A program made the position numbers and the translations under genes. Positions 50,812-53,794 of a DNA stretch of 64,000 nt are shown one piece after another (the first letter of the stretch is position 1; each line of letters starts with the position of its first letter). The notes beneath the pieces were generated by a model. It saw only the letters and a program-made list of their open reading frames with translations. It searched no databases and was not told the origin of the DNA. This stretch comes from Botryllus schlosseri (lineage: Eukaryota): NCBI GenBank assembly GCA_051294905.1, contig CM119371.1:23748001-23812000 (forward strand), given 5' to 3'.

Positions 50812-51294
50812 TCAATGATATCGTTGATCGTTATTGCACCGATTCGCGTGCTGAAATCCTCCAGATCGGTTGGTGTTTCGAGGTACACCGCTTTGCTGCC
50901 ATCCGACGCTGCGATCCGAGTTCTTGCGTTCGATCTGACCGTTTTGTTTGATGTAGCGATCACTGGCTTGTAGTATATACGATACGAGCGGAAGGTCGGG
51001 ATTAGGAACAACTACGCTGGGCGAATAGATGACGAATTCGTCAGCTGGATTCAGAGGTTGATAATGCTCGATCCCGTCGCGAGTATACGTAACGACCAGA
51101 CCTCCTTCATGCTTCAGAGTGGCTCGATATTTCTGAATGGTCCCGTTTGTGGAATGTACAAAGAGTTGATCCGAGGTCAATTCTGCTCCATTCGAAGCTT
51201 CGATACGTAATTTTGTGATGTCATTAAAAAGATACAAGTCTTTTCTATAGGGCCCCTGGGCCAGAATAGTATCTCCACGGATTGCTAGGCTCAT
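50812..51294 (-). CDS. Polinton hypothetical protein (probable start MSLAIRG)
   Basis: ORF directly downstream of the IAP stop on the same strand; no recognisable motif. Confidence 0.6.
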   Translation of the reverse strand: MSLAIRGDTILAQGPYRKDLYLFNDITKLRIEASNGAELTSDQLFVHSTNGTIQKYRATLKHEGGLVVTYTRDGIEHYQPLNPADEFVIYSPSVVVPNPDLPLVSYILQASDRYIKQNGQIERKNSDRSVGWQQSGVPRNTNRSGGFQHANRCNNDQRYH

Positions 51295-51310
51295 TCTTTG
51301 AAAAGAAATA

Positions 51311-51892
51311 TCAAACATAAGTACAACAGTCACCACGCAATTCCACCTCGCCATCAAATTTAGTCGAGCCTCTTCTTATATTAGGTGTCGCATAACAGAC
51401 ATTACGAATATATTGCAACCCCTTGCGCTTTATGAGAAAAGGACACGTAGGATAAAACTTTGCATGCTCGAGCCAGGGGTCATCGCACGGCAACCAATTT
51501 TGAAACAGCCCGCCACACGAGAAACACTTTAAATGATCCTTATAGCCCAAATAGAACAATCCACAGTCTGCGAGCTCGGCTCCAGAGGTATTGATATTAT
51601 CCGGCCACCGCATAAATGTGCTTAGTCTACGAGCATAGCGTACCATGTTATAGAAAACGGGATCATTCAACGGGGAGACAGTTACATCTCTATGCTTCGC
51701 ATAGCATTCATAAATCTTTTCTCCTCTGTTATTTATCATAGCTTGGTACTGTTCAATGGGACCCGTCCGAGTTTCATCTTCGCTTATATCTATGCTACTT
51801 GTGGTACCGATGCAAGCGCAGTTTAATGCAGCATAATTTGTAGGATCCACACTACGCTTAGGTAGCGAATCGCTTTGATCAATGTTCGACAT
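51311..51892 (-). CDS. Single-BIR inhibitor-of-apoptosis-like protein, no RING
   Basis: RRLSTF..WP, LADCGLFY.G..D.LKCFSCGG...NW...DDPWLEHAKFYPTCPF with the full CCHC zinc ligands. Confidence 0.93.
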   Translation of the reverse strand: MSNIDQSDSLPKRSVDPTNYAALNCACIGTTSSIDISEDETRTGPIEQYQAMINNRGEKIYECYAKHRDVTVSPLNDPVFYNMVRYARRLSTFMRWPDNINTSGAELADCGLFYLGYKDHLKCFSCGGLFQNWLPCDDPWLEHAKFYPTCPFLIKRKGLQYIRNVCYATPNIRRGSTKFDGEVELRGDCCTYV

Positions 51893-51899
51893 TGCTATC

Positions 51900-52197
51900 C
51901 GAATTGATATACTCTCATGATCAGTATGCTTTATATAGATATTGAGCTATGTACCATCGAAAAATGTGCTTGGTACCGATCGAATGATAGACCCCGAGGT
52001 CGTATCACGGAAATTAGAACGTCGACTGCTCACAGAAAAAGACACGTACCTCATATCCGTTCCTAGTACGTATTATCATTAATTAGAATGCTAGTAAGAA
52101 TGCCACGAGTACAATCACGCGCTCTCTGCGTGCAAAGCGCATGTACTTCACTATATAAGAGAGGCTCGAATACGAACGAAACTATACTGCAAAAAGG
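51900..52197. promoter_or_regulatory. Divergent promoter region with TATA boxes facing each gene
   Basis: CTATATAAAG on - at about 51929-51938 upstream of the IAP ATG; CTATATAAG on + at 52151-52159 upstream of ATG 52198. Confidence 0.55.
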
Positions 52198-53439
52198 ATG
52201 TCGACAATGGAGAAAGCAAGCGACGTAGTTAGCGAATCAACAACTATGATTCCTGATAATCAAGCAGATACATTACCGATTGCTGATTTCGATTCCGATG
52301 TCGATGCAGAATTGATCGAAGTTACGATTGCGGCTGAAAAGAGTAAAGAGGCGGAAGCTAGTGATGATGACGTAACAATTATTGATGAGGCAGTGGCGCA
52401 ATCTGATGAGGCTCCCTCAGCTGACGTGATGACTCCAATCAATATCGGTATACCACGACCGGTGATGGGACCAAGTGAACCTAAATCTAAGCGCAGACTC
52501 GACTTCGATAAGAGCATACTACCAGTTGGTGTTCAATTTATGCCTCCACAGAGTACTGATAACTCGACAGCTGTGACCAGTGCTCAAAGCCCGCCTCACT
52601 CACCGATCATCGCCCCATGGAGAGTTTATTCGTCCCCTTTTCGCAATAAGCGACGTCGTATCGCTAATAACGTATTGGACGAGGAAAAGTTTGATGGTCT
52701 GATTTATAATTTGGATTACCCTCTACTTACGATTGATGATGGTGTACTATTTTTCCGTTCTCTTGAGCAGAATATCGAGGAGGTGTTGTTCGTTGATCGA
52801 AAACGGAGCCCTAATTTTCTCCGTGCTGTGTTCATTATCACTCTAATGGAGGGTCATATGCATAAGAAATATTTTGCGCCTCACTTCTTTATAGAAGGCA
52901 AAAATCAAACAGGGAAAGAAGTGTTGATCGATTTGTTGCTCTCTGATGATATCGCCAACTTCCTAGATCCTTTTCATCCGAATCTAGAGGCATTCAAATT
53001 TCACAGTACCGAGAAATCTATTTCAGTGATGCGCAATTGCGGGTCTCTATTTTTCGATAACAAGATGTTGCAGGAAGCCATTATGTACGTTCATCGCGGT
53101 CCTTTGCAGTCTGCTTACGGACAAGTAAAGCCGTCGTCGTTTTGGCTCGTATCTGAAATTCAGAATGGCAGTGATGTTATGTTACGCAATTTGGGTGGGA
53201 TGTTTCAGTCTAGCACAGTGATTATTCGCTTTGGTAATCAGTGTTATCCTTGCTACTTGCCTGAGATGAATAAGCATGCTCGCCGTAAAATCATACATGA
53301 TATATTTGCTCGTACATTCATACCGTCAGATTCCGAATTTGAGAGTGATCCCTCTTATGTTGAAAACGATGTGCATGCACGTGAATTTTATGCGAAATTC
53401 GAAGAGCTCAAACGACAGTACAATGACTGGTATATTTGA
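52198..53439 (+). CDS. Polinton hypothetical protein with an acidic, disordered N-terminus, RxL motif and NLS
   Basis: 413-aa ORF; DDDVTIIDE, KSKRRLDF, SPFR and RNKRRR motifs. Confidence 0.8.
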   Translation: MSTMEKASDVVSESTTMIPDNQADTLPIADFDSDVDAELIEVTIAAEKSKEAEASDDDVTIIDEAVAQSDEAPSADVMTPINIGIPRPVMGPSEPKSKRRLDFDKSILPVGVQFMPPQSTDNSTAVTSAQSPPHSPIIAPWRVYSSPFRNKRRRIANNVLDEEKFDGLIYNLDYPLLTIDDGVLFFRSLEQNIEEVLFVDRKRSPNFLRAVFIITLMEGHMHKKYFAPHFFIEGKNQTGKEVLIDLLLSDDIANFLDPFHPNLEAFKFHSTEKSISVMRNCGSLFFDNKMLQEAIMYVHRGPLQSAYGQVKPSSFWLVSEIQNGSDVMLRNLGGMFQSSTVIIRFGNQCYPCYLPEMNKHARRKIIHDIFARTFIPSDSEFESDPSYVENDVHAREFYAKFEELKRQYNDWYI

Positions 53440-53458
53440 TTTGTTTTCTCAGATTAAT

Positions 53459-53794
53459 ATGGAACCTTATAATTGTGGTAAAGATCTAAATATGTTGTTA
53501 CAACAATATGGTTCGGGAGACACAAGACGTACGCGAGATGCTACGACTGCTACCTTTGAAGGTTTCGTTGACGATGATATCAAGAGAGTTGCTACTTGGC
53601 GAAAAATGGTCTCACTGGAGGGATATGGGGAATGGCAAAAAGATTTTCTCGTTATAGCAAAAAATGTGCTCAAAGATATCGATAAATTCGCCCCCAACGC
53701 TGATGAACTGCGTAACTTAGAAAATATCAAATTCCTGTTCCTTTATGAAGCTTTCAAGTGTAAATTGCAACTGAAATACGGAATAAATTTATGA
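53459..53794 (+). CDS. Polinton hypothetical protein (probable start MEPYNC)
   Basis: ORF filling the gap between the 413-aa gene and pPolB. Confidence 0.6.
   Translation: MEPYNCGKDLNMLLQQYGSGDTRRTRDATTATFEGFVDDDIKRVATWRKMVSLEGYGEWQKDFLVIAKNVLKDIDKFAPNADELRNLENIKFLFLYEAFKCKLQLKYGINL

Follow-up and report, generated by a model that had tools for sequence, protein, structure and literature searches.

A Polinton family of Botryllus schlosseri with an IAP-like gene in its left-end module and shuffled terminal tags

We describe a Polinton of 17,666 bp in the genome of Botryllus schlosseri (496-Mb assembly searched, G000). Its left 13.6 kb lie in the stretch of 64,000 nucleotides analysed here (the window, G000:C1:23748001-23812000). 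The best explanation of the whole, which we consider probable, is that this Polinton belongs to a young family of many copies, whose left end bears a stable accessory module driven by a single internal bidirectional promoter. The module has four genes: a single-BIR gene of the inhibitor of apoptosis protein (IAP) type and three open reading frames (ORFs), ORF160, ORF413 and ORF111. Close to its termini the element carries a 24-nt tag that is specific to it and matched between its two ends. An IAP gene among accessory genes is already known in kind; what appears to be new here is the shuffled, end-matched tag and the adjoining motif, which matches the endoplasmic reticulum stress response element (ERSE). 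Coordinates are given in Table 1.

The left-end module

Both ends of the element were located. The right terminus, found with a pattern based on the left one, lies at G000:C1:23815973-23816022; its 50 nt are the same as those of the left end (identity between the ends of at least 50 nt) and it is followed by the hexamer of the left target-site duplication (TSD). The element thus presents (AGT)2 terminal inverted repeats (TIRs), a 6-bp TSD, an rve integrase and a packaging ATPase, as Polintons do. The preliminary description had placed an intronless single-BIR gene with intact CCHC ligands inside an AGTAGT terminus, and this holds: the gene is one uninterrupted ORF, with the zinc-ligand pattern CX2CX16HX6C. 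A true TIR to the right of the BIR gene is ruled out by the terminus at 50357, with its matching right end and TSD. Across 30 loci the BIR ORF aligns without frameshift in 29, two of which have a stop; ligands C123, C126 and H143 are intact in 29/29 in-frame copies and C150 in 28/29. With window positions 50200-53900 as DNA query, 61 matches were obtained among the best 40 of 1571 candidates; 26 span nearly the whole module, and 25 of these are other copies, at 93-98% identity.

The BIR gene is inherited with the element. BIR and capsid matches were paired by eye from the coordinates of two listings (the best 150 of 627 BIR candidates and the best 99 of 274 capsid candidates, so that misses are possible). 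Among the matches listed, the BIR gene lies left of the capsid gene, in opposite direction and 8-18 kb away, in 39/41 elements of the family (one of them partial). The same holds in sister lineages for 4/4 elements at 81-83% capsid identity and 20/26 at 65-70%, i.e. 24/30, and for 0/26 elements listed at 35%. That the gene stands within the TIRs and is passed on with the element, a point which the preliminary description proposed to check in other copies, is borne out by these counts. Together with purifying selection they rule out a one-off host retrocopy. At the same place in the sister lineages, ORF413 homologues (34-73% identity) adjoin the BIR gene. Because homologues of both genes occur there, the module appears to be older than the split of several lineages in the B. 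schlosseri genome.

Dozens more BIR matches fall within long open frames of 380-583 aa, away from the listed capsid matches; many form inverted pairs with 1-15 kb between the two members. They probably belong to other mobile elements with IAP genes. A cluster of BIR matches at C5:16.0-16.2 Mb may be host IAP exons.

All four module genes are under purifying selection: the ratio of nonsynonymous to synonymous polymorphism (pN/pS) is 0.08-0.19 in their conserved parts versus 0.22 for polymerase codons 1-400, values which, among young copies, combine the effect of selection on their source elements and that of decay since they inserted, and to that extent speak less firmly for selection. The same ratio indicates where two of the orphans begin. 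In the 180-aa ORF annotated leftward, codons 1-21 have a pN/pS of 2.2 against 0.19 for the remainder, and for this reason the gene most likely starts at the third Met, position 51294, and encodes 160 aa (ORF160). Likewise, since codons 1-54 of the annotated 172-aa ORF have a pN/pS of 2.6 against 0.08 for the remainder, the last orphan most likely starts at 53459 and encodes 111 aa (ORF111). The longer versions, 180 and 172 aa, are ruled out by these leading codons. An 85-aa antisense ORF at 52260-52517 was rejected as a gene (pN/pS 0.54, stops in three copies). ORF160 had no match in Pfam, PHROG, NCBIfam or the Atlas, and profile searches with ORF111 (Pfam, PHROG, NCBIfam) gave nothing beyond one sub-threshold match to DUF7950.

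The module reads as two divergent dicistronic units, BIR-ORF160 leftward and ORF413-ORF111 rightward. The preliminary description had three orphans around a TATA/TATA region. The two divergent TATATAA boxes stand, each being the sole match on its own strand within the 308-nt interval and kept in 27 and 28 of 30 loci respectively; the arrangement of the genes does not, since only BIR and ORF413 flank the interval, ORF160 and the other shortened orphan, ORF111, being second cistrons. The gaps from the upstream stop to the next ATG are 16 nt for ORF160 and 19 nt for ORF111, each ATG being preceded by a T-rich acceptor (pyrimidine share 0.79); this is found at 4/70 internal ATGs of the polymerase gene. 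BIR and ORF413 sit behind the TATA boxes, without a strong acceptor. The leftward unit would thus contain BIR then ORF160 and end at a shared poly(A) site, and the rightward unit ORF413 then ORF111, ahead of the polymerase. The second cistrons would be released by splicing at the acceptors just behind the upstream stop, probably through spliced-leader trans-splicing by the host. In the ascidian Ciona, operons resolved by spliced leaders (PMC1488885) are described, in the passages considered here, with the same layout of same-strand genes and an acceptor right behind the upstream gene; here there are 16-19 nt between stop and next ATG, and no leader appeared among the read ends shown.

Purifying selection on the BIR protein is strongest in the domain itself: pN/pS is 0.14 for aa 83-165 and rises to 0.26 in aa 41-82 and 0.70 in aa 1-40. 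In PDB its sequence matches NAIP, with the score summed over three domains; counted by single domain, the matches are constructs of cIAP1, cIAP2 and XIAP (E 1e-24 to 1e-21). The alignment with NAIP covers aa 41-158, including a 40-residue linker upstream of the domain, which suggests that the gene descended from a multi-BIR protein together with its linker. Searches for homologues of the protein returned a 98% copy only, and none among 30 longer candidates. A Pfam scan found no RING domain in the 193-aa ORF. A C-terminal RING ligase is a feature of most anti-apoptotic viral IAPs; this BIR protein shares with viral and cellular IAPs the pattern CX2CX16HX6C and differs by having one BIR without RING. 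It may act as a decoy whose peptide groove binds IAP antagonists or processed caspases, and would keep the cell alive while linear, protein-capped copies replicate and integrate.

A non-apoptotic role, for example damping of innate-immune or NLR/NF-kB signalling, or binding of a viral partner, we hold to be unlikely. It would agree with the missing RING, with the constrained linker (pN/pS 0.26) within the NAIP alignment and with an altered groove residue: a position that is Gly in XIAP BIR3 is Leu here, and peptide binding may differ, which also counts against a decoy. On the other hand the best single-domain matches are the cIAP1, cIAP2 and XIAP constructs, the window protein has D137 and E142, two acidic residues of the groove, and a Bcl-2-like gene, itself unconfirmed, stands beside BIR in polymerase-less copies.

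ORF413 has an acidic N-terminus (27.5% D+E in aa 1-80), a cyclin-docking-like (RxL-type) KRRLDF in 24/24 copies, five S/T-P sites and a basic patch resembling a nuclear localisation signal. Its Atlas features (0.91 to DUF5906 clusters, 152-156 features in common) and a Walker-A-like EGKNQTGKE, present in 22/24 copies, recall SF3/D5-type helicases (DUF5906). We see about as much reason to accept as to doubt that the C-terminal domain is a dead helicase-like fold of this type. If homologous it would be catalytically dead, because its Walker A has Glu instead of the Ser/Thr of GxxxxGK[ST] and the other catalytic motifs are missing (read by eye, neither an acidic Walker B nor the Asn of motif C nor an arginine finger is seen where it would be expected). 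The Atlas overlap falls below the 170 features typical of true family members, and searches of Pfam, PHROG, NCBIfam, PDB and Foldseek were blank, both of which argue against the helicase; the AlphaFold models, at pLDDT 35 and 33, are too low in confidence for a fold search to mean anything. No homologue was found in a set of 5.8 billion sequences. The protein P0001 gave a weak match (E 5e-4): it has 447 aa, the layout of ORF413 including the acidic N-terminus, and 26% identity over 140 aa. Like ORF413, S3H of mavirus is, in the passages of PMC11161782 considered, a stand-alone gene beside a protein-primed polymerase.

Terminal tags and the ERSE-like motif

The pattern AGTAGT-N23-25-CCAATC-N8-CCACGT has 296 + 297 matches in the genome and 0 in the control, which gives about 300 elements. 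Termini were paired by eye among 100 matches listed: 86 form 43 left/right pairs, and 14 unpaired ones were left out. The two ends are identical over 50 nt in 34 pairs, have 1-4 differences in eight and show block differences in one. Between elements the tags are nearly always distinct, in 41/43 pairs and in 33/35 termini from fetched loci. Over these 35 termini the mean pairwise difference is 54.5% in the tag versus 11.8% at nt 51-150 and 2.7-3.5% in ORF160 and BIR.

The tags are shuffled on a scale of 3-5 nt. Words of 3-6 nt recur in many combinations, with 4-13 distinct 3-mers per tag position in the 35 termini. The excess mutual information between tag columns, 0.45 bits at 1 nt, is halved by about 3 nt and is near 0 at 10 nt. 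Sub-blocks of the tag are nearly unlinked (Mantel r -0.02 to 0.10) and the tie between tag and genes is weak (r 0.13-0.16). The spectrum of changes is 28 transversions to 13 transitions in the tags versus 15 to 51 in the genes. Because the genes too show four-gamete conflicts, at 35-47% of site pairs more than 10 nt apart, patchy exchange, or recurrent mutation, acts on the whole family. Two further ideas about the termini were set aside. An internal library of donors for the tags gave only a weak excess (8-mers 0.40 versus 0.32 shuffled, 10-mers 0.056 versus 0.026, over the 13.6 kb in the window), and an NFI site at the terminus would have a spacing one base short of the consensus and is absent in many tags.

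We propose that autonomous copies and satellites replicate outside the chromosome in the same nucleus, and that displaced strands of different elements may pair at their shared ends and be repaired in short patches, which would generate the tags. Self-pairing of the two ends (a panhandle) would make the ends of each molecule alike before integration. The tags point to an extrachromosomal phase, not necessarily an infectious one: shuffling at such a fine scale together with identity of the ends is difficult to account for unless linear genomes co-replicate. Whether animal Polintons replicate extrachromosomally is not settled by the IAP gene; on this question the tags bear more directly, and they offer a natural barcode for each insertion and free molecule.

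The tags could have another source: errors made in copying the first 30 nt at protein-primed initiation, or diversifying selection against a sequence-specific host defence. The transversion-rich spectrum and a tag diversity five times that of the next 100 nt are in its favour. Independent point errors are nevertheless disfavoured by the recurring 3-6-nt words and by linkage that decays with distance, and we regard this source as rather unlikely. Terminal tags or an ERSE in Polintons were not found in the literature searched, subscription journals and Repbase being outside the coverage; the papers on "hypervariable" sequence considered here concern other regions, and a primary paper on end-correction through the adenovirus panhandle was not found either.

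Directly behind the tag lies CCAAT-N9-CCACG. It agrees exactly with the consensus of the ERSE, to which NF-Y and ATF6 bind, as given in the passages considered of PMC5890977 and PMC7019427. The 9-nt spacer is kept in the 35/35 termini found via the BIR module, with five spacer sequences between invariant half-sites. On C1, by eye, the full motif is present in 63/71 tagged termini. Genome-wide CCAAT-N9-CCACG has 1175 matches versus 246 in the control, an excess that consists largely of copies of one repeat, and in one element the motif recurs 120 bp inward from each end.

The match names one possible trigger of element activity. If it is a working ER-stress element, NF-Y and ATF6/XBP1-type factors would switch on the element and its satellites, and the anti-death genes would counter stress-induced apoptosis. 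The exactness of the motif in 35/35 termini, its invariant half-sites around a variable spacer, the genome-wide excess, the second internal copy and an inverted pair with another spacer variant all agree with such a role; so do herpesviruses, which reactivate via XBP1s according to the part of PMC7019427 considered. Against it, no match was found near 4/4 BIR elements of the sister lineages within the listed part of C1, 8/71 tagged termini of C1 are without the full motif, and the surplus over control comes mostly from one repeat. Since the entire terminus is fixed in length, the 9-nt spacer may instead reflect an origin-binding layout. Overall we find a working stress element improbable.

A still broader reading is a stress-gated community of Polintons and satellites, in which about 300 elements would share the ERSE and the shuffled tag as an identity mark of each molecule. 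Autonomous members would supply the replication genes and the IAP, and polymerase-less or palindromic members would trade replication genes for anti-death cargo (IAP, Bcl-2-like). If true, the tag would be rewritten by strand exchange and copied to both ends, and a stressed host cell would be kept alive for the whole pool. We think it unlikely, at the level of a non-apoptotic BIR protein.

The other spacer variant forms an inverted pair 17.8 kb apart (G000:C1:21210790 and 21228566) and occurs in three further single copies; the pair is possibly another element family with the same motif.

Derivatives, satellites and RNA

Eleven elements keep the BIR gene and leave the window sequence near 52121; the ATPase follows about 1 kb after the start of a different ORF. 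A BH3-like LRRVGDE at its start makes this ORF a Bcl-2-like candidate; its first 61-70 aa have no match in Pfam or PDB. With the ATPase beginning about 1 kb after this start, these derivatives have no room for ORF413, ORF111 and the polymerase, but they retain the ATPase and the capsid gene. Since ORF413 and ORF111 are lost with the polymerase in such helper-dependent copies, with BIR kept, both may act in replication. The polymerase-less derivatives, set beside the stable BIR/ORF413 module, would show which accessory genes track replication and which track cell survival.

The start of the Bcl-2-like candidate (L029:4557-4739) has at least 150 genomic matches (the best 150 of 342 candidates), many in inverted pairs; palindromic satellites carry it in both arms. 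Likewise, dozens of inverted pairs contain the 3' half of ORF160 (residues ~76-159), many of them with about 14 kb between the copies; these are the arms of palindromic satellites. Of the 43 terminus pairs, six contain the ATPase of the family, one contains fragments, one encloses an ATPase of a sister lineage and 35 have none (among the best 150 of 228 candidates).

Two loci, G000:C1:28789162-28803833 and C2:29594449 with 29604321, carry a complete BIR gene in each of their two arms, which measure about 1.6 kb or more, and have no capsid or ATPase match. At L010 / L006 (G000:C4:11847291-11865393, 18 kb) the right side has been replaced by the left 4.9 kb in inverted orientation, with the junction within the protease gene; this element is a copy-back-like form.

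RNA was available from three raw runs sampled at 3-6% and from one contig set that is RNA by guess only. A 794-nt contig spans 51513-52306. Read depth reaches 13-29 per direction at 50757-51213, the reads of the two single-cell runs being on the minus strand; a poly(T) end at 50789 marks the poly(A) site of the leftward unit. Because most of these reads carry letters different from the window or run on unlike it (92% of the aligned reads in X24), they come mainly from satellites. Seven minus-strand GT-AG joints, from 63710 to 51295, extend across all core genes, three of them being also present in 1-2 raw reads. One, 51295-52277 in a contig of run X3, shows that the ORF160 acceptor is used. 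A protein encoded across these antisense exons is not supported, the exon 60163-60292 having stops in all three frames; because of this exon the spliced RNA could be a non-coding leader or an antisense RNA borne by the element. It may also be read-through from a host gene into one copy.

Some of these RNA results weigh against the two transcription units proposed above. Depth over the BIR ORF is 0-0.5 in the three raw runs, as low as for the core genes. The joint at the ORF160 acceptor is in cis, bypasses BIR and begins inside ORF413 on the opposite strand, and no spliced leader was present among the loose ends shown at the ORF160 and ORF111 acceptors, where depth is below 1.

Known systems and other features of the window

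The preliminary description saw in the left end an anti-apoptotic early region, analogous in position to adenovirus E1, and support for a genuine infectious cycle. In such a cycle the BIR protein would delay apoptosis until particles are made. The left end does recall that of adenovirus: shared traits are a trinucleotide repeated at the terminus, priming by a protein, a host-factor site some 30 nt inwards and an anti-death gene nearby; the ends of the adenovirus inverted terminal repeats, too, are made alike through panhandle pairing. A close analogy with E1 is not supported. E1 is read inwards from the terminal repeat and encodes an LxCxE protein and a Bcl-2 homologue, unlike this element, where transcription of the BIR unit runs from an internal divergent promoter out to the terminus, and where [LI]xCxE is absent from all four module proteins. 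In addition, nt 9-18 of adenovirus are a conserved core origin and the corresponding zone is hypervariable here.

As to an infectious cycle, most copies have intact reading frames for capsid, ATPase and protease, and polymerase-less copies retain the capsid module; moreover 19/43 terminus pairs are 14-17.7 kb long (by eye) though most are without core genes, which would fit a packaging size limit. Yet no relative was returned from viral or metagenome contigs, nor from phages, the BIR unit points away from the core genes, and an LxCxE protein is missing. Anti-death genes fit infection and intracellular spread alike: because a block on cell death would be just as useful to replication and integration that stay within the cell, the gene gives infection no support, and we judge an infectious, E1-like early region rather improbable.

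An IAP gene in a Polinton, which the preliminary description had set outside the core gene set, is not new. For adintoviruses (animal Polintons), Starrett et al. 2021 (PMC8502044) report homologues of IAP and Bcl2 as well as Oncoid genes ahead of PolB, and the supplement text carries two IAP and three Bcl2 labels. In the passages considered, adintoviruses and this element have in common a core of integrase, ATPase and the genes that we take for PolB, capsid and protease, with accessory genes in front of PolB. These passages report the IAP in passing, whereas here it is followed across lineages, with purifying selection and a divergent dicistronic unit; our element is without an LxCxE Oncoid, and the same passages make no mention of tags or ERSE. 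Vertebrate Mavericks (Barreat and Katzourakis 2021, PMC8097293) are alike in (AGT)2 ends, 6-bp TSD, size range (12.7-24.6 kb) and accessory regions flanking the core. All core genes lie on one strand here, and the passages of that paper considered do not mention per-element tags, apoptosis genes or gene conversion.

The core genes, all on the plus strand, follow in the order polymerase, ATPase, integrase, capsid, protease (Table 1). From motifs read by eye, we take the ORF 53828..57706 for a putative protein-primed family B polymerase and, from His/Cys motifs, the ORF 63449..63904 for the protease.

Table 1. Features of the element and positions in the window
Feature	Position	Strand	Remarks
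Left TSD, 6 bp, CAAAGA	50351..50356	.	identical hexamer after right terminus, G000:C1:23816023-28
Left terminus (AGT)2, AGTAGT	50357..50362	+	sister-copy homology begins at 50357, upstream flanks unlike
Element-specific tag, 24 nt	50363..50386	+	hypervariable, mosaic, same at right end of own element
CCAAT-N9-CCACG, exact match to ERSE consensus (NF-Y + ATF6)	50387..50405	+	putative, from sequence
Inner terminal region, short repeats ATTGCCAC x4 and CACATCAT x4	50406..50570	+	copies vary in length here
Poly(A) signal of leftward unit, AATAAA	50791..50796	-	kept in 30/30 loci; poly(T) loose end before 50789 in run X22
ORF160, second leftward cistron, 160 aa	50812..51294	-	pN/pS 0.19
T-rich splice acceptor directly after BIR stop, 1 nt before ORF160 ATG	51296..51311	-	last 4 nt kept in 30/30 loci
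Single-BIR, RING-less IAP-like gene, 193 aa	51311..51892	-	Pfam BIR aa 89-153, E 1.7e-18
Divergent promoter interval, one TATA box per strand	51931..52158	.	TATATAA at 51931-51937 (-) and 52152-52158 (+)
ORF413	52198..53439	+	pN/pS 0.14 over aa 161-413
ORF111, second rightward cistron, 111 aa	53459..53794	+	pN/pS 0.08; T-rich acceptor 6 nt before ATG
Putative polymerase ORF, 1292 aa	53828..57706	+	ORF call; without Pfam polymerase hit
Packaging ATPase	57710..58327	+	Pfam Pox_A32 E 8e-9
rve integrase with chromodomain	59090..60088	+	Pfam rve E 4e-13, Chromo E 3e-8
Putative major capsid protein (double jelly roll)	62175..63452	+	Pfam DJR-like E 0.011, below cut-off; sits before protease
Putative adenain-like cysteine protease	63449..63904	+	ORF call; without Pfam hit

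The observed/expected ratio of CpG is 1.37 in the element (window 50357-64000) versus 0.97 in the flank, with no sign of methylation-driven CpG loss. Elsewhere in the window, a large degenerate palindrome of about 16 kb (~25880-42440) has arrays of a repeat of about 52 nt in both arms, and a near-perfect 3.3-kb fold-back at 17388-20723 has arms that are 92-96% complementary, with a loop of 113 nt.

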